This document shows positions 5,102 through 43,501 of a DNA stretch of 64,000 nucleotides, piece by piece. Numbering within the stretch: the first letter of the stretch is position 1; each line of letters opens with the position of its first letter. A model generated the notes under the pieces. That model was not told the DNA's origin, made no database searches, and was given only the letters and a program-made list of their open reading frames with translations. The DNA is taken from assembly GCA_020633295.1 (NCBI GenBank), contig JACKDW010000001.1:1213828-1277827 (forward strand). Direction: 5' to 3'. This DNA comes from Myxococcales bacterium. GTDB taxonomy: Bacteria > Myxococcota_A > Polyangia > Nannocystales > Nannocystaceae. A program made the translations under genes and the position numbers.

Positions 5102-5410
5102 CGCTCGCGCGCGACGATCGCGAGCACCTCGCGCTCGCGGCGTTCGGGACCGACGACCCCTGTTCGCCGCTGCGCTGGCGGGGGCCACTCGCCGACGCGC
5201 GCCGGGTCGCGAGCGCGGCCATTTCGAGATGTTCCATAGGTCAGCTCCACACGCGCGCCCACACGATCGCCGCGCTCAGGGCGACCGCCCGCGCCAGGGC
5301 CCGCGCCGCCGATCGGGTCAGAACCGCCGTCACGCCCGGCAGCGCGCCGTTCACGCGAACGCCGCGGGAGGCCCGTGACGCGCTGCGCTATCCGGGGTAG
5401 CCTTCGCGCG

Positions 5411-6064
5411 ATGGAGGACGATTTTGCTCTTCTCGACAAGTGGCGCGCGGGCGACCTCGACGCGGGGAGCGACCTGTTTGATCGCCACTTCGAGAGCATT
5501 CACCGGTTCCTGCGCAACAAGGTCGGGGACGACACTGACGAGGTGATGCAGCGCACCCTGCTCGCCTGCGTCGAGAGCCGCGACCGGTTCCGCGGCGCCT
5601 CCAGCTTTCGCACCTTCCTGTTCGGCGTCGCGCGCCTCGAGCTGCTCTCGCACTACCGCCGCAAGCGCAAGCTCGACGCCCACGTCGGCTTCGAATCGCG
5701 CTCCTTCTACGACCTCGACCCGTCCCCCAGCACCATCGTCGCCCGCCACATGGAGCAGCGGCTGCTGCTCGAGGCGCTGCGCAGGCTCCCCGTCGACCTC
5801 CAGATCGCGCTCGAGCTGCACTACTGGGAGGCGATGTCCGCGACCGAGATCGCGACCGTGCTCGAGATCCCCGCCGGCACCGTCAAGAGCCGCCTGCGCC
5901 GCGCCAAGGAGCTGCTGCGCGAGACCATGAGCCACCTCGCGCTCAACAAGGATCAGCTCGAGAGCACCATGGGCGACCTCGGCGGCTGGGCCAAGTCGCT
6001 CGGCGAGGCGCTGCGCGAGGGCGCCGCGTCCCCGCGTCGAGGCGGGCGCAAGCCGAAGCGCTGA
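5411..6064 (+). CDS. ECF-type RNA polymerase sigma factor (sigma-70 regions 2 and 4)
   Basis: ATG 5411 (MEDDFALLDKW...). Region 2-like FRGASSFRTFLFGVARLELLSHYRRKRK and region 4.2-like helix-turn-helix MSATEIATVLEIPAGTVKSRLRRAKELL. An alternative GTG start at 5375 is possible. Confidence 0.8.
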   Translation: MEDDFALLDKWRAGDLDAGSDLFDRHFESIHRFLRNKVGDDTDEVMQRTLLACVESRDRFRGASSFRTFLFGVARLELLSHYRRKRKLDAHVGFESRSFYDLDPSPSTIVARHMEQRLLLEALRRLPVDLQIALELHYWEAMSATEIATVLEIPAGTVKSRLRRAKELLRETMSHLALNKDQLESTMGDLGGWAKSLGEALREGAASPRRGGRKPKR

Positions 6065-6085
6065 TCGACCACCGGAGAGCCGACG

Positions 6086-6472
6086 ATGACGCGCAGGGAG
6101 CTGATCAAGGCCGTGCAGGACTCCGTCCGCGAGGCGCTGCCCGAGCTGACGCAGCACGACATCGCCACGGTCGTCGACGCCGCCTTCGAGCAGATCGCGA
6201 CCGCCATGCGCGATGACGGCCGCTACGCGCACCCCGGCTTCGGCACCTTCTCGGTTCGCCGCCTCGCGCCGCGGCCTGGCTTCAACCCGCGCACCGGCGA
6301 GCGAATCCAGGTGCGCGCCTCGACCTCCGTGCGCTTCTCCGCCTCGCGCTCGCTCGTGGAGCGCCTCGGCGTCGCGCGTGCGCCCAGCGACCACGCGGAC
6401 GCGCGCGACCTCGAGAGCGACCTCGAGAGCGACCTCGAGAGCGACCTCGAGAGCGACCTCGAGAGCGACTAG
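6086..6472 (+). CDS. HU/IHF-family nucleoid DNA-binding protein with an acidic C-terminal (DLES)5 repeat tail
   Basis: ATG 6086 preceded by GGAGAG, Shine-Dalgarno (SD)-like ribosome-binding sequence, 6 nt upstream. HU-fold motifs ELIKAV, GFGTFSVRRLAPRPGFNPRTGERIQVRASTSVRFSAS. Confidence 0.85.
   Translation: MTRRELIKAVQDSVREALPELTQHDIATVVDAAFEQIATAMRDDGRYAHPGFGTFSVRRLAPRPGFNPRTGERIQVRASTSVRFSASRSLVERLGVARAPSDHADARDLESDLESDLESDLESDLESD
6407..6466 (+). repeat. Perfect 12-bp tandem repeat (gacctcgagagc) x5 encoding DLES x5 at the C-terminus of the HU-like protein
   Basis: Direct reading of 6407-6466. Confidence 0.9.
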
Positions 6473-6602
6473 CCCGAGGCCTACACCCCCTGCCCGCAGC
6501 GGGGCGCCGAAGCTCAGGACGCGCGCGCGCTCGCGCGTGGTTCTACGATCGCCCGACCCGACCGCGTCCGCGCGCGCGCGACGTCACGCGCGCCTGCCCA
6601 AT

Positions 6603-6631
6603 TGAGCACACAAGCAGACGCTGATACCATC
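6603..6631 (+). promoter_or_regulatory. Candidate sigma-70-like promoter (TTGAGC, 17-bp spacer, TACCAT) upstream of repeat-element copy 1 and sthA
   Basis: Hexamers at 6603-6608 and 6626-6631 with a 17-nt spacer, in the 515-bp HU-sthA intergenic region. Pattern match only. Confidence 0.25.
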
Positions 6632-6662
6632 GCCGCGTCCGATGCAGGAGGTGCGCCGGTCC

Positions 6663-6890
6663 AGGTCTAGCTCGGTGCCCTGCACCAGGGCGGCGTTGCG
6701 CCGCCCGGGCGTACCTCTCCGCATTCATCACAAGGAAGGCTATTCCAGAATGTCGCTGTCCCGAGAAGAGCCCGTAGACGGCGACGGGCTGGAACAACCT
6801 CGCCACTCGAAGTTCCGTACGCCGTCTACGGGCTCTTCTCGGGGCGAATTCAGTGAGCCTTCCATGTCCCAGGTCATGTCGTAGACGACC
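6663..6890 (+). repeat. Copy 1 of a conserved non-coding element with a long hairpin. Core 6726-6875; the variable stem arms 6761-6781 and 6822-6842 form a 21-bp perfect helix. Candidate structured RNA or a MITE (miniature inverted-repeat transposable element).
   Basis: About 150 nt near-identical to 9663-9812 apart from the central stem (for example catcacaaggaaggctattccagaatgtcgctgtcc ... ggcgacgggctggaacaacNtcgccactcgaagttccgtacgccgt ... ggcgaattcagtgagccttccatgtcccaggtc). The stem is entirely different in the two copies yet perfectly complementary within each. Weaker similarity extends about 60 nt upstream. Confidence 0.75.
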
Positions 6891-6986
6891 GCGCGCCTCC
6901 GGCATCGGACACCTCTTCACAACCAGCCACGGACCCCACCCAGGCGAGCCCCGACCTCGTCCGTCGTCGCCAGCAGGAGACACGCA

Positions 6987-8393
<1,407 letters not shown>

Positions 8394-8622
8394 GACCGCT
8401 GCGGTGACGCCGAGCGCCGCGCGCGAGCGTGGCAGCGCGCGCGCGAGTCCGCACGACGCCGCGCGCGAGCAGCCGCCGCGCGCGACCACGTCCGCACACG
8501 CCGCGCGCCGCAGCGCGCCCGACAGCGCGCGCCTGGCCCGAAGATATTGTCGCGCGCGTCGCCGGCACGCGCCGAAATCACGGCCAGGACGAGTTCCGGA
8601 ACTGTTATGCTGCGTTGAGCCC

Positions 8623-9381
8623 ATGTCCGAGTTCCAACTCGCCACGCGCACCTCGATCACCGCGTACTATTCGCGGAGTCAGCTGTTGATCATCGCCGAG
8701 GGCAAGCTGCCGACGCCGGATTGGGAGATCGACATCAGCCAGGATCACAACCAGGCGGCGGTCCCGACGTTTCGACTCTCACGTCGCCCGCGGCCGACCG
8801 ACACCGGCGACGAGGAGACCCCGTTTCGCTACGGCGAGATCTTCACGATCGGCCGCCCGCCCGATCACATCATCGTCCGCCACGTCGACGGCGACGACCG
8901 CGTCCCGGTCGAGTTCACCAACCAGGAGCTCGTCGACATCGTGCTCAGCCTCAGCCTCGAGGACAGCCAGAGCGACGTCCTCGAGATCCCGATGCTCGAC
9001 GACATGGGCGACGAGCCGTCCTCCTCGGTCTACGACTCCGGCCTCCACCGCGTCGAGGTCAACGCGTCCTCCCTGGGCGGCGGCGGAGACGTCATGGTCG
9101 GCCAGGCCATCCCGGCGATGGGCGGGATCAACCTCGACCCGAGCCAGAGCGGCTCGGGCATGCTCAACGACCTCAGCGTCCGCTACCGCGAGTCGGTCGG
9201 CTACTCGAACAAGCTCTCCTTCGACGAGGCCTTCGCCGACGCGCTCAAGAAGCTCCCCCCGCCCGCGATGAAGTTCCCCGACATGATGGAGACCGTCGAG
9301 GTCGTGCACATCGGCGGGACCTTCGGCGGGATCGCGGGCTTCCACCGCCTCGAGGTCCGCATCCGCGCGTACCCCGACTGA
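8623..9381 (+). CDS. Hypothetical acidic cytoplasmic protein (no recognisable domain)
   Basis: ATG 8623 ([11 protein letters not shown]...). Protein-like composition with slightly lower-GC codon choice than the neighbours (tat, agt, ttg, ttt). No signal peptide. Confidence 0.55.
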
Positions 9382-9597
9382 GCGCGCGACGAGATCTCGC
9401 GCCGCCTCCAGCGCGAGCGGTCGGGCCCGCGACCCGACAAAACATGACTCATAAACCAGGTTTCCGCGCGCGCGCGCCGGGAGAAACTCACCCGCGCGCG
9501 CCGGGAGGCGCGGGAAGCTGCGGGAAGCTGTTGATCCGCGCGCCGGAGGCGTGCTATCCGATCAGCACGCGGACGAACTGCTCACCCGACCAGGAGG

Positions 9598-9825
9598 TAG
9601 GTCTAGCCTGATGCCCTGCATCAAGATCGGCGCTGCGCCGATCCGGCATCTTCCATCGCACACATCACAAGGAAGGCTATTCCAGAATGTCGCTGTCCCT
9701 CATATATGCCTCGTACGGCGACGGGCTGGAACAACGTCGCCACTCGAAGTTCCGTACGCCGTACGAGGCATATATGAGGGGCGAATTCAGTGAGCCTTCC
9801 ATGTCCCAGGTCTTGAAGTAGACAT
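9598..9825 (+). repeat. Copy 2 of the hairpin element. Core 9663-9812; stem arms 9697-9718 and 9759-9780 form a 22-bp perfect helix with a different sequence from copy 1.
   Basis: Direct comparison with 6663-6890. Same orientation. Loop and flanks identical except one c/g difference in the loop. Confidence 0.75.
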
Positions 9826-9855
9826 CTTGGTAGTTGAGCTTTTCCGACGCCGCTT

Positions 9856-9910
9856 GCGGCCAGCGAGCCTTTCCCACCCCCTTGGGGCTTCGCTGGCCGC
9901 ACTTTTTTAA
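9856..9910 (+). terminator. Candidate intrinsic terminator immediately downstream of element copy 2
   Basis: gcggccagcgagcc (9856-9869) pairs with ggcttcgctggccgc (9886-9900) with one bulge and a 16-nt loop, followed by cacttttttaa (T-run 9903-9908). Confidence 0.45.
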
Positions 9911-10129
9911 GCGGCTCAAGCTCTTCCCACGTCCGCCCAGTCCGGCCCCCGGTGGCCCTGGCAACGCCGCGCTCGTAGGCCTCAGCCGCGACCTCGGAGT
10001 GCCCGAGGCGAACGGCGGCGTACAGCGCCGCGTCGAGATCCTGCATCGCGCCGGCGCCGTCGCTCGCCTTCATGCGCGCGCTCCCGCGGCGCAGCGTGCT
10101 CGGCCGACGGTAAGGAACCCGAACCCGAG

Positions 10130-10897
10130 CTAGCCGGTGGAGCCCGTGTCCGTGTCGCCGCCGGTCGTCCCGCCGCCGTCCGGCACCCCGGAGCAGTCGG
10201 TCGGGAAGTCCGTGATCGGCACCGGCAGATCGCCGGGCGCCGAGCTGGCGACGCGGATCGCCGAGAAGGTCGAGCCCTCGAGGCTCGCCATCAGCGGCTC
10301 GATGACGTTACCCTCGATGATCCCGCACACGAAGTCCGCGCTCTGGATCGAGCCGACGTAGCGCAGCTCCGTGACGATGTCGCTGCCCGTGATCGGGTTG
10401 GCAGCGCCCGTGACCATGAAGGTCTGATACACGCCGTCGCCCGCCGGGAACGCGTAGCGCCCGTCCTCGTCGACGACGATGTCGGGGATCACGATCGAGT
10501 CGCCGACCGGCGTGCGCGGCGTGTCGATGCTCTGCGGCTCGAGGGCGAGCGGCTGCAGCGTCAGCGTCAGGCGCCCGCCCAGGCCCTCCGGCGTGAACTC
10601 CTGCGTCGCCAGGAACTGCAGCGGGTGCGTCGGGTCGATCACCGAGGCGACGACCATCAGGAACTCGCCCGAGATGTCCTCGAGCTGCCCGCCGAGGTCC
10701 TCCTTCGGGAGCGGGAGGTCCCGCAGCTCCCGGGTGTCGTCGAGGAAGCCGTCGAGCTTGCCCTGCGGATCCGGGCAGCCCGTGGCGGTGAGCGACGCCA
10801 GCGTGAGCGCGCCCGCCAAGCCGAGACGCGCGCGCGTCCCCGCGCGCCCCTGCTGCCTCTGTCCACGCGTCCGCTCTGGCCAAACTTCCTGTTGCAT
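10130..10897 (-). CDS. Lipoprotein, hypothetical
   Basis: ATG (complement) at 10895-10897. Signal peptide with lipobox ...LTLASLTATGC. The C-terminus is Gly/Thr/Asp-rich. The longer track ORF to 11134 is an Arg-rich upstream extension and was rejected. Confidence 0.65.
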   Translation of the reverse strand: MQQEVWPERTRGQRQQGRAGTRARLGLAGALTLASLTATGCPDPQGKLDGFLDDTRELRDLPLPKEDLGGQLEDISGEFLMVVASVIDPTHPLQFLATQEFTPEGLGGRLTLTLQPLALEPQSIDTPRTPVGDSIVIPDIVVDEDGRYAFPAGDGVYQTFMVTGAANPITGSDIVTELRYVGSIQSADFVCGIIEGNVIEPLMASLEGSTFSAIRVASSAPGDLPVPITDFPTDCSGVPDGGGTTGGDTDTGSTG

Positions 10898-11225
10898 GCG
10901 CTCTGGATCCCGCTCGACGACAGGGCCCCGATCGAACTCAGGAGTCCCTTGGGCATGGTCGCACAGTTCCGGGCGCGCGCGCGAGTTCCTTTTTCCCGCG
11001 CGACCGCTCCCGCCTTCCCGCGCGACCGCTCCCGCGCTGCGGCGAGCGGGCCGGGAGAATCGTTGCGTAGCCAACCACCTCCGCGGACCCGCGACGGCGC
11101 GGCGGCTTTCGTGCCCCGACGCCGCGACTTTCATAGTAGAGTCGCCCCAGGGTCGAGAAGCGGGTCCACGCCCTGGCTGCTCGACGCGCGGCCGTCCGCG
11201 GCCGACTCATGGACGAGGAGACCCG

Positions 11226-12755
11226 ATGCCGACACCGTCGACCTGGCCGACCGCTCCCCGAACCTCGACGTCGCGCGCGCTGACGCGGGGCGCCTTCGCG
11301 CTCAGCTTCGCGCTCGCGCTCGCCGCTGGCCAGCGCGCCGAGGCCTCCGGGCTGGCGACCGCGCGCTTCGGCGGCGAGCACGGGCACCCGACCACCGACA
11401 ACCCGACGGCGACCTACTACAACCCCGCCGGCATCGGGCTGTCGACCGGCACGCACATCTTCATCGACGGCACGCTCGCGCTGCGCTGGGCCAGCTACGA
11501 GCGCCCCGAGTCCGCGATCAACAACCCCGGCACGGGCACGCCGGACGAGGCGATCGACGCCAACGCCGGCAAGGCGACGCTGTTCAACGTCATCGGCGCC
11601 CCCTTCGTCGGCGTCACCTCGGACTTCGGCACGCAGGGGCTGGTCGTCGGCGGCGCGAGCTTCTCGGTCCCCTTCGGCGGCCAGGCGGTCTGGAACGCCA
11701 ACGAGAAGTATCAGGGCAGCGACCGCTACCCGGGCGCGGTCGACGGGGTCCAGCGCTGGTACACGATCGACGGCGCGCTGCGCTCGATGTACATCACCGG
11801 CTCGCTGGCCTTCCACCTCAAGAAGATCGGCCTGGCGATCGGCGTCTCCGGCAGCGCCATCTACAGCGGCGTCAACACCATCCGGGCGCGCAACGCCGAC
11901 GGCACCGACGACCTGGTGCTCAGCCAGGACTTCGACAACCCGGCCAACCTCAAGGAGGGCCGCAGCCTCATCGACGTCTCCGGCTGGCAGGGCGGCTTCG
12001 GCATCGGCGCCGTCTGGCACCTGCGCGACAAGTTCTGGGTCGGCGCCTCCTACACGAGCCAGCCCAACGTCGTCGGCGGCATGAAGCTCAAGGGCACGCT
12101 CGTCAACATCCTCGCGAGCGCGCGTCAGCCCGACGAGACCGAGGTCGAATTCACGCAGACGCTGCCCGACATCATCCGCCTGGGCTTCCGCGTCCGCCCG
12201 CTCGAGAAGCTCGAGCTGCGCCTGTTCGGCGACTTCACGCGCTGGTCGGTGATGGACAAGCAGTGCGTGCTCGACAGCGGCGTCGAGGATCGCAACTGCG
12301 AATTCCCCGGGGCCGACACCGCGCTCGACAACCCCTCGGGCTTCGGCTCCGGTCAGAACGCCAACGGCGACACGGTCGTCAAGGGCGTCACCCAGCACCT
12401 CCCGCGCTTCTGGAAGAACGGCGGCGGCGTGCGCTTCGGCGCGAGCTACTTCTTCACCGAGAAGGTCGAGGGCTACGCCGGCCTCGGCTACGACAGCACC
12501 GCGGTGCCCGTGCAGACCGTCGACGCCGCGCTGCTCGACATGCACAAGATGTCGGTCTCGGTCGGCGGGCGCTTTCAGATCGTCCGCAACTTCGCGCTCG
12601 CGCTCACGCTCACCGACCTGATCTACTTCCCGCTCGACACCAAGGGCCGCAACGTCCTCAACCAGTTCCAGGCGCCCACCCGCCAGGCCGACGCCAACGG
12701 CGTGTACAAGTCGAACATCGCGGTCGCCAACCTGTACCTCGACGTCTCGTTCTGA
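11226..12755 (+). CDS. FadL/OmpP1/TodX-family outer-membrane transporter for hydrophobic substrates
   Basis: ATG 11226. Signal peptide ...FALALAAGQRAEA. FadL-family N-terminal motif ATYYNPAGIGL. Alternating beta-strand pattern and C-terminal ...LYLDVSF (terminal Phe typical of outer-membrane beta-barrels). Confidence 0.8.
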   Translation: MPTPSTWPTAPRTSTSRALTRGAFALSFALALAAGQRAEASGLATARFGGEHGHPTTDNPTATYYNPAGIGLSTGTHIFIDGTLALRWASYERPESAINNPGTGTPDEAIDANAGKATLFNVIGAPFVGVTSDFGTQGLVVGGASFSVPFGGQAVWNANEKYQGSDRYPGAVDGVQRWYTIDGALRSMYITGSLAFHLKKIGLAIGVSGSAIYSGVNTIRARNADGTDDLVLSQDFDNPANLKEGRSLIDVSGWQGGFGIGAVWHLRDKFWVGASYTSQPNVVGGMKLKGTLVNILASARQPDETEVEFTQTLPDIIRLGFRVRPLEKLELRLFGDFTRWSVMDKQCVLDSGVEDRNCEFPGADTALDNPSGFGSGQNANGDTVVKGVTQHLPRFWKNGGGVRFGASYFFTEKVEGYAGLGYDSTAVPVQTVDAALLDMHKMSVSVGGRFQIVRNFALALTLTDLIYFPLDTKGRNVLNQFQAPTRQADANGVYKSNIAVANLYLDVSF

Positions 12756-35562: not shown

Positions 35563-35868
35563 GGAGATCACGCGGCGCTCGGCCGCCGCGAGGAACACTG
35601 TCAGCGACGGAGACGACAGCGCCGTCACGGTTTGAAGACATCGCGGAGACGTCGACTCGCGCGACGTCTCTGACTTGTCTCAAAAGACAGCTCGTGTTTG
35701 CGCCCGCGCGCTGTATCACGCGCGCGCGGTTGAAGTCGCGATCCCCGGCGCCGCTCGGGCACTCGCGCGCGCCTCGTGGAGCGGTCGCGACAACCACGCG
35801 AGACGTCGGCGTCGCCCGAGAACGCGCCGCGCCGCGTGCTAGGCTGTTCGCTTACCGTGGGTGACGGG

Positions 35869-37590
35869 ATGCACATGCGCCCCCTCCAATCCGGGAGGCG
35901 GGCGGCGGTCGAGCATGTTCAAGAGCTCGTCGATCCGCGCGTCGAGCCCCACGACGCCAACCAGCTCGAGCTCAAGCTCGGCTACGTCATCAAGCCCGGC
36001 GAGCGCCGCCAGCGCTACCTCATCGAGACCTACATGTTCATCCCCAAGACGCTGGGGATCGATCGACACAGCTACAACGCGAGCCGCTTCTACGCCGACA
36101 CCGCCGCGTTCCTGCGCCTGCGCACGCCCCACGTCTCGCTCGAGGCGCTGGCGACCGTCGGCAGGGCCAACGCGTGGTTCGAACAGCTGCACTCCGGGCT
36201 CGACGCGCGCGCGCGCATGCGTGAGCGCGACATCAGGCGACTCGCGCGGCGCGTGAAGATCCTCGGCTGCGTGTACCGCTCGGCGCTCCGCGACGACGCG
36301 CGCTCGCTCCGGCAGCAGCTCACGAGCGCGCCGGCGCCCGATCCCCTCGCCGAGGGCCGCATGCAGGAGACGACCGCGCGGCGGATCCGTCGCTTCGTCC
36401 GCAACATCGAGCGCGCGCTCCGGCGCCTGCGCGCCGTCGACGGGCGCTGCCTCGCGCGCGGCGACGGCGACCTGCTCTGCGACTCGTGGCGCGCGGTCGA
36501 CGAGTACAGCGCGCTGATCGCCGAGGACGTGTGCAAGGACGTCATCGTCGCGCTCGACGATCGGGCGTCGCGCTCGCCCGTCGTCCACCCCGACCTCCTC
36601 GACGCGCGCGCGCGGCTCGTGCGGGCCGCCGTCGACGCCCACCAGTATCGCCGCAGCCGCGGCTACCGCAGCCAGCTCATCGCCGGCGAGAGCAACGAGG
36701 AGCTGCCCCACTGGCGGCGGACGATCAAGCGCATCGTGTTCAGCGCGCTGTACCTCGACGTGCGCCACGAGGAGGTCGGGCGGCTCGCGTATGACCTCGT
36801 GGGCGCGGTCGCGGCGATGATCGCGATGGCGTTCGCCGTCACCGTCAGCCTGCTCGCGCAGCTCGAGCTCGACATCTTCAGCGGCGCCTTCGTCGCGATC
36901 ATGATCGTCTCCTACATGATCAAGGATCGGCTCAAGGACTGGGGCAAGCGCTACGGCGGCCGGCACCTCGGGCGGCTGCTCCCGGACACGCTCGTGCGCG
37001 TGCACGACAACGAGGGCGACCGCGCGCTCGGGCAGTGCCGCGAGTCCTTCTACATGCTGCAGGTCGACGAGGTCGACGACGAGATCAGGCGCTCACGGCA
37101 GTCGCGTCGCGCGAGCTCGATCGAGCGGCTCGGCAAGCCCGAGGTCGTCATCCGCTACTCCAAGGACGTGACGCTCCACTCGCAGCCGCTGCGCGACGAG
37201 CTCGCCGGCCTCGAGGGGCTGCACGACATCATCCGCTTCAACCTCGGGCACCTGCGCGACCGCATGGACGCGCCGCGCGAGGACCACCCGCTCATCGACC
37301 CGAACACGGGGGAGATCCAGATCATCCCCTGCGCGCGCGTCTATCACATCAACATCATCCTGCGCATGACCGTCGGGCGGGGCAAGCACGCGCGCAGCCG
37401 GGTCGAGCGCGTGCGCGTCGTCATGGACCAGCGCGGGATCAAGCGCGTCGAGTTCCTCGACCGCCACGGCAAGCAGCTGGTCTGCAACCACGAGGGCGGC
37501 GCGCCGTTCCAGGACATTACGAACCTCTCGCTCCCCGCGATCCCGCGCGCGCAGCTCGAGGACTCCGGCGCGGCCTCGGCGGCGCGCTGA
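35869..37590 (+). CDS. Hypothetical protein with two central transmembrane helices
   Basis: ATG 35869 (MHMRP...). Hydrophobic segments VGAVAAMIAMAFAVTVSLLAQL and FSGAFVAIMIVSYMI. No recognisable catalytic motif. Immediately upstream of the ACAD/ACP/PKS operon. Confidence 0.55.
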   Translation: MHMRPLQSGRRAAVEHVQELVDPRVEPHDANQLELKLGYVIKPGERRQRYLIETYMFIPKTLGIDRHSYNASRFYADTAAFLRLRTPHVSLEALATVGRANAWFEQLHSGLDARARMRERDIRRLARRVKILGCVYRSALRDDARSLRQQLTSAPAPDPLAEGRMQETTARRIRRFVRNIERALRRLRAVDGRCLARGDGDLLCDSWRAVDEYSALIAEDVCKDVIVALDDRASRSPVVHPDLLDARARLVRAAVDAHQYRRSRGYRSQLIAGESNEELPHWRRTIKRIVFSALYLDVRHEEVGRLAYDLVGAVAAMIAMAFAVTVSLLAQLELDIFSGAFVAIMIVSYMIKDRLKDWGKRYGGRHLGRLLPDTLVRVHDNEGDRALGQCRESFYMLQVDEVDDEIRRSRQSRRASSIERLGKPEVVIRYSKDVTLHSQPLRDELAGLEGLHDIIRFNLGHLRDRMDAPREDHPLIDPNTGEIQIIPCARVYHINIILRMTVGRGKHARSRVERVRVVMDQRGIKRVEFLDRHGKQLVCNHEGGAPFQDITNLSLPAIPRAQLEDSGAASAAR

Positions 37591-37774: not shown

Positions 37775-38914
37775 ATGGACTTCAGCTGGACAGACGAGCA
37801 ATCGACGCTCCACGAGCAGGCGCTCGAGTTCGCGCGCGCCCGGCTGCGCGGGCGCGACGACGACGACGACCGCAGCTTCGCGCGCGCGACCTGGCGCGCC
37901 CTCGGCGACTTCGGGGCGCTCGGCGCCTGCCTGCCCCGCGCCCACGGCGGGCTCGGGCTCGACGCGCTGACCACCGCGCGCGTCGTCGAGGGGCTCGGTC
38001 ACGGCGCGCGCGAGCTCGGCCTCGTGTTCTCGGCCTGCGCCCACCTGCTCGCCTGCGCCGTCCCCGTCGCCGAGCACGGGAGCGCCCAGCTGCAGCGCGA
38101 GGTGCTGCCCGCGCTCGCCTCGGGCGAGCAGATCGGCGCCAACGCGATCACCGAGGCCGGCGCCGGCTCTGACGTGTTCTCGCTGCGGACCACGGCCCGC
38201 CGCGACGGCGACGACTACGTGCTCGACGGCGCGAAGAGCTACGTCACCAACGGCCCCGTCGCCGATCAGCTCCTCGTCTACGCCTCCACCAACCCCGCGC
38301 ACGGCTACCTGGGCATCAGCGCGTTCCTCGTCGACGCGCGCCAGGCCGGCGTCACGCGCGGCGAGCCGTTCCACAAGACCGGCCTCGGGAGCTCGCCGAT
38401 CTGCCCTGTGTACCTCCGAGACGTGCGCGTGCCCGGCTACCGCCGGCTCGGCGCCGAGGGCGGCGGCGCGGCGATCTTCCAGCGCTCGATGGCGTGGGAG
38501 CGCGCCTGCCTGTTCGCGGCCTTCGTCGGCGCGATGGCGCGTGACCTCGAGCTCTGCCTCGAGCACGCGCGCGGCCGCCAGCAGTTCCGCAAGCCGATCG
38601 GGCGCCACCAAGCGGTCGCGCACCGCCTCGCGGACATGAAGCTCCGCCTCGAGGGCGCGCGCCTGCTGCTGTACCGCGCGTGCTGGCGGCTCGACCGCGG
38701 CGAGCTCGCGGCGCTCGACATCAGCCTCGCCAAGCTCGCGGTCAGCGAGGCCGCGGTCCAGAGCGGGCTCGACGTCATCCGCCTCCACGGCGGCCTCGGC
38801 TACATGTCCGAGACCGGCCTCGACAACGGCCTGCGCGACGCGCTCGGCAGCCTGATCTTCTCGGGGACCTCCGAGATCCAGCGCGACCTGATCGCGCGCG
38901 GCCTCGGGCTCTAG
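37775..38914 (+). CDS. Acyl-CoA dehydrogenase family protein
   Basis: ATG 37775. ACAD N-terminal region FSWTDEQSTLHEQALEFAR, middle-domain ANAITEAGAGSDVFSLRTTARRDGDDYVLDGAKSYVTNGP, and C-terminal helical domain with QQFRKPIGRHQAVAHRLADM. Confidence 0.9.
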   Translation: MDFSWTDEQSTLHEQALEFARARLRGRDDDDDRSFARATWRALGDFGALGACLPRAHGGLGLDALTTARVVEGLGHGARELGLVFSACAHLLACAVPVAEHGSAQLQREVLPALASGEQIGANAITEAGAGSDVFSLRTTARRDGDDYVLDGAKSYVTNGPVADQLLVYASTNPAHGYLGISAFLVDARQAGVTRGEPFHKTGLGSSPICPVYLRDVRVPGYRRLGAEGGGAAIFQRSMAWERACLFAAFVGAMARDLELCLEHARGRQQFRKPIGRHQAVAHRLADMKLRLEGARLLLYRACWRLDRGELAALDISLAKLAVSEAAVQSGLDVIRLHGGLGYMSETGLDNGLRDALGSLIFSGTSEIQRDLIARGLGL

Positions 38915-38975
38915 CGCCCGCCCGACGCGCGACCCGACGCGCGCCCCCGATCGGCGCGCCGCGAGCTCCCGCGGC

Positions 38976-39000
38976 GCGCCGCGCCGCGCCGCGCCGCGCC
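38976..39000. repeat. (GCGCC)5 pentanucleotide simple-sequence repeat in the ACAD-ACP intergenic region
   Basis: Direct reading of 38976-39000. Confidence 0.85.
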
Positions 39001-39090
39001 GCCGACGGCGCGACGCGACGCGCCACGAATTTTCGTCACCGATCCGCCGCCGGATCGAACACGCACCCCTGACACACCGCTGAGTTCACG

Positions 39091-39399
39091 ATGCAAACCA
39101 TCAACCACACCCCCGCCCTCTCGTCCACGACCGCCGACCGCTTCCTCGAGCCGCTCTCGCGCTTCATCATCCGCGAGTTCCTCCACGGCGACGCGAGCCT
39201 CACGCCCGAGACCCCGCTGCTCGAGTGGGGCGTGATCGACTCGATGACCATCATCGACGTCATCGTGTTCATCTCGGAGCAGCTCGGCGTGCGCGTGCCC
39301 GACGAGGAGATCCGCCCCGACAACTTCGCCACGCTGCGCGCGCTGAGCCGCATGCTCGCCGCGCTCGACGACGCCGCGCGCGTCCGGGGGGCGGCGTGA
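39091..39399 (+). CDS. Acyl carrier protein (discrete)
   Basis: ATG 39091. Phosphopantetheine-attachment motif LEWGVIDSMTIIDVIVFISEQLGV (DS-M/L core). 102 aa. Confidence 0.8.
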   Translation: MQTINHTPALSSTTADRFLEPLSRFIIREFLHGDASLTPETPLLEWGVIDSMTIIDVIVFISEQLGVRVPDEEIRPDNFATLRALSRMLAALDDAARVRGAA

Positions 39400-40472
39400 G
39401 CCGCGTCCACCTCTCGAGCCTCGTGACCGTCGCGGGCGCCCACACGGTGCCGCAGGCGGCGCTCGGCGAGTCCATGCGCCACCAGCTCGCGCGCCTCCCC
39501 GAGGCCGCGGGCGTGGCCCAGATGATCACCTTCGTCTACGCCCGCTCGGACATCCGCGCGCGTCACCTCGAGCTCGCGCCCGACGAGCTCGAGCGGCGCG
39601 ACGACTGGTACGCGCTCACCAACGAGGCGACCTTCCGCCTCGCCTGCCGGGCGCTCGACGCGGTGCTCGCGGCCGGCGAGCGCGCCGAGACGCTCGACGG
39701 CCTCGTCGTCGTCAGCTCCAGCTACGCCGGCTTCCCCGCGCTGAGCCGGCGCCTGCAGGACCGCTACCGGCTCCCGACCGCCGCGCGCTGCCTCGACCTC
39801 ACCGGCCTCGGCTGCGGCGGCTCGACCCAGGGGCTGGAGCTCGCCGACAGCCTCGTGTCCCGTGGGACATGTAAAAAAGTCGCGCTGATCTGCGTCGACG
39901 TCATGGGCACCTTCGGCGCCGCGCGTCGGCACCTGCGCGCGCCGACGATGTCGCAGCTCGTCGCCCACTGCCTCGCGTCGGACGGCGCCGCGGCGCTCGT
40001 CGTCGAGCGCGAGCCCTCGCCGCGCTGCGTCCTCAGCTACGCGCGCGCGCGCCTGCGCACGCGCCTGTGGCCCGGGACGCTCGCGCTCAACGACCTCACC
40101 GCGGACGCCGACAACCAGCCGCTCATCGCGGTCGGCAAGGACATCCGCGCGCGCCTGCTGCCCGAGGTCGCGCCGCTGCTCGAGCAGCTCGAGCCCGGCC
40201 TGCTCGCGATGCACCCCGGCGGCAAGGCGCTCATGCAGCTGCTGCGCGCGCGCTGCCCCGACCACGCCGACGCGGCCGAGCTCGCCATGGCGACGCTGCG
40301 CGAGCACGGCAACCTCGGCGCCCCCTCGGCGCTGTGGGTCCTGCGGCGCGCGCTGAGCTCCGAGCTCGCGGGCGCGCTCGATCGCGGCGGTCGCTGCCAC
40401 CTGTTCGCGCTCGCGCCCGGCATCGTCACGACCCTGTTGACCCTGGAGGGAGCGCGCAGCCATGCCGCGTGA
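39396..40472 (+). CDS. Type III polyketide synthase (chalcone/stilbene synthase family)
   Basis: GTG 39396 overlapping the ACP stop (GTGA). Active-site Cys context LDLTGLGCGGSTQGLELADSL, His region LAMHPGGKALMQ, and Asn region GNLGAPSALWVL (corresponding to GNMSSA). Confidence 0.8.
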   Translation: MSRVHLSSLVTVAGAHTVPQAALGESMRHQLARLPEAAGVAQMITFVYARSDIRARHLELAPDELERRDDWYALTNEATFRLACRALDAVLAAGERAETLDGLVVVSSSYAGFPALSRRLQDRYRLPTAARCLDLTGLGCGGSTQGLELADSLVSRGTCKKVALICVDVMGTFGAARRHLRAPTMSQLVAHCLASDGAAALVVEREPSPRCVLSYARARLRTRLWPGTLALNDLTADADNQPLIAVGKDIRARLLPEVAPLLEQLEPGLLAMHPGGKALMQLLRARCPDHADAAELAMATLREHGNLGAPSALWVLRRALSSELAGALDRGGRCHLFALAPGIVTTLLTLEGARSHAA

Positions 40473-42668
40473 TCACCACGTCGTCCCCGTCCCCGCCCCC
40501 GCCCCCGCCCCCATCCCCGAGCTCGACGCGCGGGTCCAGGCCGCGCGCGCGGCCCAGCGAGCCTGGGCGCGCGCCGGCGTCGCGCGCCGGCTCGAGGTCC
40601 TGCAGGCCGCCGGCCGCCGCCTCGCGCGGCGCGGCGCGGCGCGCTCGACGAGGCGCTCGCCGCCGACGGCCTCTCGCGCAAGCTCGCCGGCCCCTACGGC
40701 GACTGGGTGTGCGCGCAGGCGGAGCCCGCCCGGCTCGCGCGCTACGCCGCCCAGCTCGTGCGCGAAGAGCCAGGTCCCCGCGGGCCCGAGCTGCTCGTGC
40801 GCCGCCCCGACGGGCTCGTGCTGCTCGTGCCGCCCGGCAACTCGCCGACCATCAACGCCTCGTGCCTGTTCTCGATCCTGCTGCCCGGCAACGCGGTGAT
40901 CGCCCGGGCGCCCGCCCGCGACCGCGGCGTGCGGCTGCTCGTCGAGGACGTGCTCGGCGGCGCCCTGGAGGAGGCCGGGATGGACCGCGCGCTCGCGCAG
41001 GTCCTGACGATCGGCACGCGCCCCTTCCTCGACGCGCTGCTCGGGCGCCCCGAGCCGCGCACGCTCGTGTTCTTCGGCAACACCCGCGTCGGCGAGGCGG
41101 TCGCCGAGCGCTGCCGCGCCGCCGGCAAGAAGGTGGTGCTCGAGCTCGAGGGCAGCGACCACATGATGATCTGGCGCGACGCGCCGCTCGAGCGCGTCGT
41201 CGACAGCGCGCTGCGGGCCTTCGACTTCTCGACCCAGCCCTGCGCCGTGCCCAAGCACCTGCTCGTCCACGGCGCGCGCTTCGACGAGCTCGTCGCGGCG
41301 CTCGAGCGCCGGCTCCCCGAGGTCTCCGTCACGATCGCGCGCGACCCCGAGCGCGGCGTGCTCGCGCCCGTCGCCCGCCGCGAGGACTACTTCGCGTGCC
41401 TCGACGAGGTCGCGCCCGTCGCCGAGCTGCGCGGCGGCGGCCCGATCGACGCCGACGGAGAGCCTGACCCTGAGGGCATCTTCATCGCGCCGACGCTCGC
41501 GCTGCTCGACGCGCAGACCGTGCTCACGCGCCCGCTCCGGCTGTTCGAGGACGAGATCAGCTTCCCGCTGCTCCCGATCGTCCGCTGCGACGGCGCGCGC
41601 GACGAGGACGCGCTCGCGGCCATGCTGAAGATCGTCGGCGGCAGCCCCTTCGGCCTGCGCGCGTCGCTCTGGAGCGAAGACGCGGAGGTCATCGAGCGCT
41701 GCGTCGAGGAGCTCGCGGAGGTCGGGCTGCTCGTCGTCAACGGCGATCACTGCGAGGTGCCCGGCTACGCCTCGCCGTGGGGCGGCCCCGGACGCAGCGG
41801 CGGCCCCGGGGGCGAGAGTCACCTGTTCTGGGAGAAGACCAGCCGCCTGCAGGCGATCACGCTCGACCCCGCGTCGCGTCGCGCCGCGCTCGCGGCCCTC
41901 GGCGTACCAGACCCATCAGACATGTCCCGATCGCCCGCGACGCCCGCGCCGGACGCCGGCGAGCCGCTCACGCTCACGCTGGAGGACGGCGTCGCCACGC
42001 TCACGCTGCGTCGCCCCGCGCGTCACAACGCGGTCAACCCGGCCATGCAGCGCGCGCTGCTCGCGGCCGCGCGCGAGCTGCAGCGACGTCAGCACGAGCT
42101 GCGCTGCGTCGTCATCCGCGGCGCCGGTCGCTCGTTCTGCAGCGGCGCCGATCTGCACGCGCTGCGCGAGCTGGACCCGGACGCCGCGCGCCGCTTCATG
42201 CTCGACGCGACCTGGGCGTTCCGAGCGCTCGAGCGCCTGCCCGCGCCCGTGATCGCGGCGGTCCACGGCTACTGCCTCGGCGGCGGCTTCGAGCTGCTGC
42301 TGCACTGCGACGAGGTCATCGCGGCCGAGAGCGCGCGCCTCGGGCTGCCCGAGGCCAACCTCGGGCTCGTGCCGACCACCGGCGCGATCGCGCGGCTCAT
42401 CGCCAGCGTCGGAGAGCTGCGCGCGCGCGAGCTCGTGATGTCCGCCCGCGCGCTGACGGCCGCCGAGGCCCAGCAGTTCGGGCTCCTCACCCTCGTGGTC
42501 CCGGACGCGGCGCTCGACGACGCCGTGGCCGAGCGCGTGCGCGCGCGCCTCGCCCAGCCCCGCGAGGGGCTCGCCGCGGTCAAGCGCCTGTTCGCCAGCG
42601 GCCGCCGCCACGCGGGCGCGTGGATCCACGAGCTCGAGACCTTTGATGCCCTCACCCGCGGATCGTGA
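40462..42668 (+). CDS. Aldehyde dehydrogenase-like domain fused to an enoyl-CoA hydratase/isomerase (crotonase) domain, interrupted by an apparent frameshift at 40625-40644
   Basis: ATG 40462, with GGAGGGA 9 nt upstream. The ALDH-like N-terminus (ELDARVQAARAAQRAWARAGVARRLEVLQAAGRRLARRG) is in frame 1. The remainder, from about 40640, is in frame 0: ALDEALAADG..., PPGNSPTINASC, catalytic Cys FDFSTQPCAVPKHLLV, then crotonase VVIRGAGRSFCSGADL...AAVHGYCLGGGFELLLHCD. Deleting one CGCGG unit joins the two frames cleanly. Confidence 0.6.
40625..40639. repeat. (CGCGG)3 pentanucleotide tract at the ALDH-ECH frameshift site
   Basis: Direct reading: cgcgg cgcgg cgcgg cgcgc. Confidence 0.8.
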
Positions 42669-43501
42669 TCATGACCTCCGAAACCTCCTCCCCGACCTCC
42701 TCCCCGACCTCCTCCGCAACGCCCTCCTCGACCTCCGACGACGCGGGCGCCCCGACCCGCCTCGCCGGCGAGGTCGCGCTCATCACCGGGGGCTCCCGCG
42801 GGATCGGGCGGGCCATCGCCGTCGAGCTCGGGCGGCTCGGCATGCGCGTCGCGATCAACTACCGCGCCGACGAGGCCGCCGCCGCCGAGGCCGCCGCGCG
42901 CACGCGGGCCGCCGGCGCCCCCGAGGTCCTGCTGCTGCAGGGTGACGTCGCGCGCCCCGAGGTCAACCGCGCGCTCGTCGAGGCCGCGCGCGCGCGGCTC
43001 GGGCCGGTCGACGTGCTCATCAACAACGCCGGCATCCAGCGCGCCCAGCTCGCGCACAAGATGTCCGACGACGACTGGCGCGACGTCATGGCCGTCAACC
43101 TCGACAGCCTGTTCTACTCGGCGCGCGCCGTGCTCCCGGAGATGCTCGAGCGGCGCCGCGGACAGATCCTGCACGTCGCGAGCGCCTCCGCGTTCATGGG
43201 CCAGCGCGGCGCCTGCAGCTACGTCGCCTCCAAGCACGCGGTGATCGGCCTGACGCGCGCGCTCGCGGTCGAGACCGCCGGGCGCGGGATCCGGGTCAAC
43301 GCGATCGCGCCCGGGCTCACGCGCACCGACCTGCTCGCCGACCTCCGCGCGCCGCAGCTCGAGGCGCTGCGCGGCATGGTACCCATGCGTCGGCTCGCGG
43401 CGCCCGAGGAGGTCGCGCGCGCCGCTCGCTTCGTCCTGACCGAAGCGACATACAGCACCGGGAGCGTGCTCCACGTCGGCGGCGGGGTCGTGATGGCGTG
43501 A
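42665..43501 (+). CDS. SDR-family oxidoreductase (3-oxoacyl-ACP reductase FabG-like)
   Basis: GTG 42665 (GTGA overlap with the upstream stop) or ATG 42671. Ser/Thr/Pro-rich N-terminus, then the glycine-rich NAD(P)-binding site VALITGGSRGIGRAIA and a catalytic YxxxK (SYVASKHAV). Confidence 0.85.
   Translation: MIMTSETSSPTSSPTSSATPSSTSDDAGAPTRLAGEVALITGGSRGIGRAIAVELGRLGMRVAINYRADEAAAAEAAARTRAAGAPEVLLLQGDVARPEVNRALVEAARARLGPVDVLINNAGIQRAQLAHKMSDDDWRDVMAVNLDSLFYSARAVLPEMLERRRGQILHVASASAFMGQRGACSYVASKHAVIGLTRALAVETAGRGIRVNAIAPGLTRTDLLADLRAPQLEALRGMVPMRRLAAPEEVARAARFVLTEATYSTGSVLHVGGGVVMA

Follow-up and report, generated by a model that had tools for sequence, protein, structure and literature searches.

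Results

The ALDH-crotonase gene is read in two frames

The window (the whole 64-kb stretch of DNA that we analyzed) contains an operon read from the + strand. A gene of the acyl-CoA-dehydrogenase fold (37775–38914; Pfam, NCBIfam) has the prolyl-carrier-protein dehydrogenases PigA and RedW as its nearest relatives; it scored 463 bits against the NCBIfam model of PigA (cut-off 500) and 430 bits against that of RedW (cut-off 650). It is followed by a gene for a 102-aa carrier protein (PP-binding in Pfam, 39091–39399) and by a gene for a 358-aa condensing enzyme that resembles KASIII and type III PKS (39396–40472, MCB9749357.1). Next come the ALDH-crotonase gene and a gene for a FabG-like short-chain dehydrogenase (SDR, 42665–43501), whose start overlaps the ALDH-crotonase stop. 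The genes adjoining the ALDH-crotonase gene are intact.

The dehydrogenase scores and the adjacent small carrier protein recall the pyrrolyl-carrier-protein cassettes (PigA/PigG/PigI of prodigiosin, RedW/RedO/RedM, and the halopyrrole cassettes Plt and Bmp). However, the scores are below the NCBIfam equivalog cut-offs, and the KASIII-like, ALDH-crotonase, and SDR genes are foreign to those cassettes. We compared the operon with 18 orthologous loci. The SDR gene lies directly downstream of the ALDH-crotonase gene in 14 of the 18; the KASIII-like gene lies directly upstream in L001–L006, L017, and L018, and most of the other loci have it at another position. Orthologous clusters also encode an amino-acid adenylation enzyme, a carrier-hydrolase fusion, and a FADH2-halogenase-like enzyme. 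L001 and most other orthologous clusters have the adenylating enzyme, the halogenase, and the hydrolase domain, none of which occurs anywhere in the 64 kb. Some natural clusters (L015 and L016) are similarly reduced, being without those genes at the same positions, and thus a reduced architecture is not decay in itself.

The ALDH-crotonase gene begins at an ATG (40462) that overlaps the upstream KASIII-like gene by 11 nt. A similar overlap with the upstream gene, of 14 nt, is seen in the closest orthologue (L001). A Shine-Dalgarno-like GGAGGGAG was read directly at 40445–40452, 9 nt 5' of this ATG. Sequence inspection revealed no comparable motif ahead of the annotated GTG at 40707–40709, the start of the deposited 653-aa protein (MCB9749358.1), which is probably not the real start.

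Reading of the open frames agreed with the initial annotation, which had placed the N-terminus in the frame of ATG 40462 and the rest of the protein in the frame of the ORF at 40707. The ATG frame stops at a TGA at 40897–40899, which closes an out-of-frame reading. No Pfam match was found to the 145-aa product of this frame. The second frame is open from the TGA at 40470–40472, and its earliest start codon is GTG 40707. We assigned codons 1–54 of the gene (40462–40623) to the first frame from their invariant residues, a gain in HMM score, and a GC3 of 0.94. The remainder (40644–42668, ending with the TGA at 42666–42668) belongs to the second frame according to Pfam, an alignment with 21 homologues over its whole length, and a GC3 of 0.96–0.99. 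In this second part, the ALDH domain extends to about 41822, and the crotonase domain (ECH_1) occupies about 41982–42599.

Both domains named in the initial annotation were recovered by Pfam when the two parts were joined: the repaired protein matched Aldedh (PF00171) at residues 20–452 with 142.4 bits (cut-off 23) and ECH_1 (PF00378) at residues 506–711 with 150.5 bits (cut-off 27). In the deposited 653-aa product, the match to the Aldedh profile does not begin until position 99 of 461; adding the first-frame codons raised the family-HMM score from 171.9 to 248–255 bits. MCB9749358.1 is probably N-terminally truncated, the protein actually made probably being a fusion enzyme of ∼734 aa. Alignment of the family, the ALDH-crotonase fusion proteins of Myxococcota, revealed 68 invariant columns, all of which are kept in the window (for example E226, P262-K263-H264, and W438-G439-G440); the nearly invariant C259 is also present. 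Invariant columns are kept on both sides of the break, with a GC3 of 0.94–0.99 and with neither a stop nor a second shift. The ALDH-crotonase gene shows no sign of decay beyond the frame break.

The frame break lies in a GC-only pentanucleotide tract

Homologue alignment located the frame break. The first frame carries the invariant residues A31, W35, R43, L47, and G51 and the nearly invariant L54, and the second frame carries L60, L64, and D67-G68-L69-S70. Since the frame changes between L54 and L60, the break must occur between codon 40621–40623 and codon 40644–40646. This interval is a tandem repeat, which the homologue residues bracket exactly, so the gene is indeed split within a repeat, as had first been proposed. 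Codon-position GC gave the same answer. The ATG frame gave a GC3 of 0.94 upstream of the tract, and the second frame gave a GC3 of 0.96 and a GC2 of 0.54 downstream of it. The GC3 phase is different in the second frame, and the switch by GC3 coincides with the tract.

On inspection, the sequence at 40621–40649 reads CTC GCGCG GCGCG GCGCG GCGCG CTCGAC. Tandem Repeats Finder reported the tract at 40624–40643 (+ strand), with a period of 5, 4.0 copies, a 100 % match, and the unit GCGCG. The repeat first described, (CGCGG)3 followed by CGCGC at 40625–40644, is this same (GCGCG)4 tract in another register. Its 5-nt unit is not divisible by three and lies within the ORF at codons 55–61, so that the reading frame depends on the number of copies. 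Chance does not explain the tract: Markov simulations predicted 0.005–0.025 perfect tracts of period 5 and at least 20 nt per 64 kb, and two were observed. With one mismatch allowed, the exact 20-mer of the tract was expected 0.05 times and was found at 4 overlapping places in the two tracts.

The only pentanucleotide repeat elsewhere in the window is a (CGCGC)5.6 tract (38975–39002, + strand), which is the reverse complement of the genic tract and lies between the dehydrogenase and carrier-protein genes. The two tracts form an inverted pair (I8) of 20 nt, 100 % complementary and 1624 nt apart. Past the repeat proper, the pair extends to 84 % over 37 nt in GC-only sequence, which is an unconvincing extension. 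The DNA around the tract folds no better than shuffled sequence (z = +1.07) and showed no unusual structure; thus, a special hairpin is not needed as an explanation.

Homologues point to an excess of two nucleotides

The initial annotation had raised the question of whether the gene is one ORF elsewhere. It is, in ∼37 homologues and in the 18 orthologous loci. The 37 proteins (P0002–P0038, 642–760 aa) carry both Pfam domains and cover 88–99 % of the repaired query. The alignments of all 18 orthologous loci pass through the junction in a single frame, and none of these loci is split there. The tract itself is absent from 18/18 loci, the maximum being two units in L015.

Across the junction, the window exceeds all 18 orthologous loci by exactly 2 nt. 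Removal of one 5-nt unit had been proposed to give a clean junction. This removal does restore the frame, but the repair is not clean: the resulting protein lacks one residue relative to every homologue. The spacing between G51 and D67 becomes 15 aa versus 16 aa in 56/56 homologues, and the codon stretch from V46 to L69 becomes 72 nt versus 75 nt in 18/18 orthologous loci. On the contrary, removal of 2 nt gave the exact family length, and the family HMM scored this repair 4.6–7.1 bits above the 5-nt repair. Because the 2-nt repair both fits the family length and scores higher, the lesion is better described as a net gain of 2 nt (one CG) in the tract than as an extra pentanucleotide unit.

Probable short-read contigs end before the tract

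The window derives from the MAG HK-STAS-MYXO-17, a Nannocystaceae genome with a GC content of 0.72003 and a ctg_max of 1,438,650 bp that was highlighted in its paper for 27 gene clusters (Liu et al. 2021, PMC8518188). The GC content of the window (0.7206) agrees with this value. The relative abundance of the MAG was 0.0398 % (PMC8518188). The authors assembled Nanopore reads (mean accuracy, 86.7 %) with Flye and then took each bin twice through Unicycler hybrid assembly with Illumina and Nanopore reads to close gaps (Liu et al. 2021, PMC8518188). From 514 Gb of Illumina data, 267 Gb of ONT data, the abundance of 0.0398 %, and a size of 11.04 Mb, we estimated a coverage of the MAG of ∼18x for Illumina and ∼10x for ONT (own arithmetic). 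Unicycler bridges short-read dead ends using the long-read consensus (Wick et al. 2017, PMC5481147). ONT errors cluster in short tandem repeats, and indels are the majority of errors in 2-bp repeats (PMC11912559).

We found the locus in two Logan k-mer assemblies of public runs, with one mismatch each; these contigs were reached only via the KASIII-like protein. We infer the sequencing platform of the runs and take SRR12358675 and SRR12358676 to be the two Illumina libraries of Liu et al. One Logan contig stops at 40615, 9 nt short of the tract, and the other at 40564, 60 nt short of it. Local GC at these ends is 0.87–0.88, and the surrounding stretch of ∼180 nt is 86–88 % GC. Exact look-up with the deposited protein, two SDR start variants, and the dehydrogenase gave no contig from the far side of the tract. 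From these independent Logan contigs, rather than from the Unicycler graph, we infer that the stretch containing the tract is a long-read bridge.

Searches for further copies of the locus covered genome and metagenome contigs. Genome contigs contained no other copy (best match, 61 % identity) and did not include the species itself. Metagenome contigs gave no match with flanking anchors separated by a variable gap, nor with a degenerate codon pattern downstream of the tract. No length variant of the tract was seen among the homologues, genome contigs, and metagenome contigs scanned.

A second frame break lies in another CG tract

A second frame break was detected in a (CG)8 tract at 4800–4815, in an unrelated kinase gene. 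There, GC3 passes from one frame (0.96) to another (1.00), and the periodicity ceases at the stop codon of the new frame. The tail of the kinase in the new frame matched the family tail in an exhaustive search of representatives; a word-indexed homology search with the repaired tail returned no match. No further frame breaks were found within the 64-kb window besides those at 40624–40643 and 4800–4815. A wrong count of CG units could account for both breaks. A rate of two errors in 64 kb would surpass the indel rate of the mock benchmark of Liu et al. 2021 and in this respect counts against an assembly error, although that benchmark, with about 1–1.8 indels per 100 kb, had a coverage of about 100x (PMC8518188). 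Another repeat in the window, with a 12-nt unit (6405–6464), has 5 copies here versus 2 in another sample.

Discussion

Taken together, these results make it likely that the organism carries an intact ALDH-crotonase gene of ∼734 codons and that the frame break is an error of the deposited assembly. A sequencing or assembly error at a GC-rich repeat was one of three options in the initial annotation, and it is the one best supported by the provenance of the MAG, the ends of the probable short-read contigs, and the second break. Short reads of this low-abundance organism would have failed to assemble across the GC-rich stretch of ∼180 nt. Unicycler would then have spanned the dead end with consensus sequence from Nanopore reads of low accuracy, in which the alternating CG run would have come out 2 nt too long. 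In the organism itself, the sequence probably reads CTC GCG GCG CGG CGC GGC GCG CTC (L-AARRGA-L) or something close to it; a tract of 18 nt, such as GCG(GCGCG)3, would be in frame and give ...GRRLAARRGALDEAL...

The break shares traits with Unicycler long-read-bridge indels, being a single break in an otherwise conserved gene and lying in a low-complexity tandem repeat (PMC5481147, PMC11912559, Kastor PMC12007338). It also resembles gene-fragmenting hybrid-assembly indels in its setting: that assembler, reads of ∼87 % accuracy, low coverage, and a similar break nearby. Unlike the classic ONT error, which affects homopolymers, both breaks lie in alternating CG tracts.

A real and recent insertion of 2 or 5 nt in the GC tract, carried by this strain or by a fraction of the population and inactivating the ALDH-crotonase as a young pseudogene or a segregating null allele, is a considerably less probable reading, though one with some weight. 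The 653-aa product from GTG 40707 would then lack ∼70 matched positions at the start of the ALDH profile and would probably be inactive. Indels do concentrate in tandem repeats, and the tract far exceeds chance length. The cluster is a reduced version of a conserved one, so selection on the pathway may be relaxed; the three missing operon components would fit a decaying cluster and to that extent count against an assembly error. So does the 12-nt repeat at 6405–6464, which differs in copy number across samples of the organism, so that tandem repeats do vary in the population. However, the gene has no further lesion, its family-invariant residues and strong codon bias persist before and after the break, and the neighbours are intact. 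The natural reduction of L015 and L016 means that missing genes are not decay per se. The excess is 2 nt rather than one repeat unit, and replication slippage in a tract of period 5 would be less expected to produce it. A technical cause is indicated by the assembly history and the similar break in an unrelated gene. Homopolymer frameshifts in glpK of Mycobacterium tuberculosis are an example of slippage pseudogenes or reversible null alleles. As in slippage frameshifts of simple repeats, the indel here is confined to a short coding tandem repeat in a gene that is otherwise intact; unlike the glpK type, it is an excess of 2 nt in a tract of period 5, and no second allele was found in the sequences scanned.

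The initial annotation had also considered a slippage-prone switch. The tract would then be a contingency locus, in which slippage by 5-nt units would turn the last enzymes of the pathway on and off. In favor of this reading, the tract has a unit length that is not divisible by three and sits early in the coding sequence, the loss of one unit restores the frame, and a second, longer copy of the unit is present in the operon (38975–39002). The arrangement is in this respect like that of Neisseria opa, where the length of a pentanucleotide repeat near the 5' end of the ORF sets the frame. Phase-variable tetra- and pentanucleotide loci, such as the (CTCTT)n of opa, usually carry more units than the four found here. 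Unlike opa, the tract is not conserved in orthologues (0/18 loci), it lies in a gene for a biosynthetic enzyme and not for a surface antigen, and no length polymorphism was found in assembled sequences. Moreover, the in-frame allele of three units would be one residue shorter than 56/56 homologues, and the other frame break affects a housekeeping-type kinase, not a typical contingency gene. The switch thus found no support, and we consider phase variation very unlikely. We give slightly less credence still to the proposal that the 20-nt tract is real and length-variable, a GC pentanucleotide repeat that would switch a secondary-metabolite tailoring enzyme, possibly with its inverted copy 1.6 kb upstream. 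Least probable of all, to the point of being barely credible, is programmed recoding, by which a –1 ribosomal frameshift or transcriptional slippage would yield the full-length protein from the deposited sequence. A –1 shift would join the two frames, because the second is offset from the first by –1. However, neither a slippery heptamer of the form X XXY YYZ nor a run of A/T occurs in 40600–40650, the flanking DNA shows no better folding than shuffled sequence, all orthologues are single-frame without a frameshift, and a –1 shift would give 17 residues where the family has 16.

If the frameshift were real, it would merely represent one strain's loss of a tailoring step in an uncharacterised pathway. 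Under the assembly error that we favor, the main import of the finding is the data quality of the deposited record. HK-STAS-MYXO-17 and similarly built MAGs likely have such breaks where GC-only repeats meet short-read gaps, and these breaks affect pseudogene counts and the prediction of biosynthetic gene clusters.

The ALDH-crotonase gene is broken within a GCGCG tract

The window has a GC content of 72.1 %, and its stretch 40621–40649 reads CTC GCGCG GCGCG GCGCG GCGCG CTC GAC. Tandem Repeats Finder reported 4.0 perfect copies of GCGCG at 40624–40643; the (CGCGG)3 repeat that the initial annotation had placed at 40625–40639 is the same stretch with the register shifted. The frame of ATG 40462 is open until TGA 40897–40899 and encodes 145 aa. 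A second frame is open from 40473 on, and its earliest ATG, GTG or TTG is GTG 40707; the ORF ends at 42668 and its 653-aa product is the one deposited, as MCB9749358.1 ([quoted passage not shown]).

When the frames were rejoined by removing 5 nt, Pfam recognized an aldehyde dehydrogenase domain (Aldedh) at residues 20–452 (profile 30–449 of 461) and a crotonase domain (ECH_1) at 506–711. The Aldedh match of the deposited product begins only at profile position 99, and the 145-aa product has no Pfam match. A search of 5.8 billion proteins returned the deposited protein and 37 two-domain proteins of 642–760 aa, with 45–61 % identity over 88–99 % of the repaired query. All 37 homologues are from Myxococcota, including Enhygromyxa, Pseudenhygromyxa, Nannocystaceae and Polyangiaceae. 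In the alignment, the ATG frame reads the invariant A31, W35, R43, L47 and G51 and the nearly invariant L54, and the second frame reads L60, L64, D67, G68, L69 and S70, all nearly invariant. The conserved residues thus change frame between L54 and L60, which puts the switch between codons 40621–40623 and 40644–40646, that is, in the 20-nt tract. Codon-position GC agrees: GC3 is 0.94 in the ATG frame 5' of the tract, and 3' of it GC3 is 0.96 and GC2 0.54 in the second frame. Both lines of evidence bear out the earlier proposal that a frameshift in the repeat splits the gene. A split at residue 55 was found in no orthologue. A few loci of Polyangia (L013, L015, L016) have separate ALDH and crotonase genes, divided at the linker (∼residue 470–500) and not at 55, so the fusion is not universal in the family. 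Such separate genes occur in some Polyangia and Polyangiaceae genomes, in two on opposite strands.

ATG 40462 is supported as the true start by an GGAGGGAG motif 9 nt upstream, by an 11-nt overlap with the upstream gene (the closest orthologous locus has a similar 14-nt overlap) and by a gain of ∼80 bits on the family HMM (65 homologues) once the first 54 codons are added. The corrected gene model would encode about 734 aa from ATG 40462. The gene opens with an in-frame (CCCCGC)4.7 repeat (40485–40519) coding PVPAPAPAPAP, and the SDR gene with a 12-nt unit, also in frame, repeated 4.5 times (42683–42736) and coding TSSPTSSPTSS. These low-complexity N-terminal extensions are missing from most homologues.

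A lesion best described as two extra bases

The frame is recovered by any of three minimal changes, −5, −2 or +1 nt. The codon stretch from V46 to L69 measures 75 nt in all 18 orthologous loci versus 77 nt in the window, and the −5-repaired query showed a one-residue gap at the junction in each of the 18 tblastn alignments. The spacing between G51 and D67 is 16 residues in 56 of the 56 homologues in which both anchors could be located; it becomes 15 after the −5 repair, 16 after −2 and 17 after +1. On the family HMM, removal of 2 nt scored 255.0 bits on the 5' side (junction AARRGAL) and 252.5 bits on the 3' side (ARRGAAL), removal of 5 nt 247.9 bits (ARRGAL) and addition of 1 nt 247.5 bits (ARRGAARL). 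Although the −5 repair first suggested is in frame, it agrees less closely with the family, being one residue short and lower in score than either −2 variant. From these comparisons, the lesion is best described as two extra bases (one CG) within the tract. The GCGCG repeat is present in none of the 18 orthologous loci and is thus specific to this lineage.

A probable second break and other repeats in the window

We scanned the whole window for frame breaks with a seven-state model on codon-position GC, checking the coding segments against start and stop codons. Window-end segments and a few small start/stop offsets at ordinary gene boundaries aside, two anomalies were found, at 40625 and at ∼4802 in the large kinase/ATPase ORF 857–5101. 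The latter coincides with a (CG)8 tract (4800–4815) near the 3' end of the Ser/Thr-kinase/ATPase gene. On the 5' side of (CG)8, GC3 is 0.96 in the frame of the ORF; on the 3' side, GC3 is 1.00 and GC2 0.51 in another frame until its stop at 4926–4928, past which there is no codon periodicity. The original frame runs on for ∼100 more codons, which are arginine-rich. An exhaustive search gave 150 homologues, whose C-terminal consensus, aqgirnPermaamlaPg, is similar to the new-frame tail (...SLGVRAPVELSERLVP...), and repair raised the kinase tail-HMM score from 28.2 to 36.6–39.6 bits. A second frame break at (CG)8 is probable on this reading of the sequence. It requires +2, −1 or −4 nt and is thus also compatible with a miscounted CG unit. 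Both breaks lie within GC-only repeats of at least 16 nt, of which the window has about six; no breaks were seen elsewhere, so the breaks are due to the repeats, in the cell or in sequencing.

The 176 nt that separate the dehydrogenase gene from the carrier-protein gene contain the only other pentanucleotide repeat in the 64 kb, (CGCGC)5.6 at 38975–39002. The genic tract, 1.6 kb further downstream, is exactly its reverse complement, and the spacer repeat occupies the place of the adenylation-enzyme gene of most orthologous clusters. A 12-nt repeat, GACCTCGAGAGC (6405–6464), codes (DLES)n at the C-terminus of an HU-like DNA-binding protein (gene 6086–6472). It has five copies in the window and in an ENA contig from another dataset (L053, WANG18-1_SAMN08389192) and two in a second ENA contig (L054, ERZ27309141); its copy number thus differs between samples, in frame. 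These contigs and a Logan contig (L055, SRR6747757) match the window at 97.6–99.8 % from 5073 on. Before that position the sequences of L053 and L054 are unrelated to the window, and 3 nt at 5151–5153 are absent from L053 and L055. The discrepancies at 5037–5153 resemble strain-level variation or additional consensus errors.

The operon is a reduced version of a conserved cluster

Myxococcota share a conserved gene cluster to which the operon (37775–43501) belongs (L001, the closest orthologue, 2270–11229, and other loci). The cluster comprises a prolyl-carrier-protein dehydrogenase similar to PigA/RedW, a carrier protein, a KASIII-like enzyme, an SDR and the ALDH-crotonase fusion; most orthologous clusters add an enzyme for amino-acid adenylation, a fusion of carrier and hydrolase, and an FADH2-halogenase-like enzyme, and these three suggest a (halo)pyrrole-derived product. 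L001 encodes the PigA/RedW-like dehydrogenase, an amino-acid adenylation enzyme, a carrier protein-alpha/beta-hydrolase fusion, the FADH2-halogenase-like and KASIII-like enzymes, the ALDH-crotonase and the SDR. In the window, the dehydrogenase, the KASIII-like enzyme, the ALDH-crotonase and the SDR are accompanied only by a stand-alone carrier protein, and no adenylation enzyme, hydrolase function or halogenase-like enzyme was found in all 64 kb. Directly 5' of the operon, a 604-aa ORF (35776–37590) has a strong coding signal; it has no Pfam or NCBIfam match, and none of the 18 orthologous loci has an equivalent.

Independent contigs end just before the tract

The source MAG is HK-STAS-MYXO-17 (Liu et al. 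2021, Microbiome 9:205, PMC8518188), with 64 contigs, 11,043,955 bp, a GC fraction of 0.72003, 8512 CDS and 89.35 % completeness. The longest contig (1,438,650 bp) carries MCB9749358.1; the MAG is assigned to Nannocystaceae in GTDB and has a relative abundance of 0.0398 % (PMC8518188). Its GC agrees with that of the window, and its family with the taxonomy of the homologues. After binning, each bin was hybrid-assembled with Unicycler v0.4.8-beta, re-binned and passed through a second Unicycler round "to bridge the gaps" (PMC8518188). The Illumina data amounted to 514 Gb and the Nanopore data to 267 Gb. By our own arithmetic from these totals, coverage of this genome is estimated at ∼18x Illumina and ∼10x Nanopore. 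Unicycler builds on a short-read graph (PMC5481147). Nanopore errors cluster in short tandem repeats, and those in 2-bp repeats are mostly indels (PMC11912559).

Two Logan contigs also carry the gene of the KASIII-like protein; they derive from the public runs SRR12358676 and SRR12358675, which we infer are the two Illumina libraries of the study (PMC8518188). The contigs correspond to window 38969–40615 and 39040–40564, with one mismatch apiece, and end 9 and 60 nt short of the tract, both within a stretch of GC 0.87–0.88 (40500–40680). The longer one starts 6 nt before the pentanucleotide tract at 38975–39002. No contig from beyond the tract was recovered, and the ALDH-crotonase locus was not found in the other searchable genome and metagenome contig collections.

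Origin of the frame break

Taken together, these results suggest that the frame break is probably an assembly artefact. On this reading, the short-read graph would dead-end before the tract and Unicycler would bridge the gap with long reads, as documented for such dead ends; low coverage with low read accuracy would then lead to a miscounted CG unit. The probable short-read contigs that stop just before the tract, the similar probable break in an unrelated kinase/ATPase gene and the excess of 2 nt, not one repeat unit, all argue for this, as does the lack of further damage: family-invariant residues and strong codon bias are intact on both sides. Sequencing or assembly error at a GC-rich repeat was the first cause listed in the initial annotation and we rate it the most likely. 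A real, recent indel is a less likely alternative: indels arise preferentially at tandem repeats in nature, and the repeat of the HU-like gene does vary between samples. The reduced operon points the same way but is weak evidence of decay because some natural clusters (L015, L016) are also without genes at those positions.

An on/off switch by slippage, also put forward at first, finds no support and is very improbable: the tract has four units only, is not conserved and showed no length variation, and the 3-unit allele that would be in frame falls one residue under the family length. Programmed frameshifting is for practical purposes excluded, as the tract has no slippery site and no unusual structure around it, and the shift is not conserved in orthologues. 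The original observation was accurate and well localized, and its interpretation right in part. The feature is ordinary and probably not biological, and the GC-only repeats of HK-STAS-MYXO-17 are a warning for users of this MAG.
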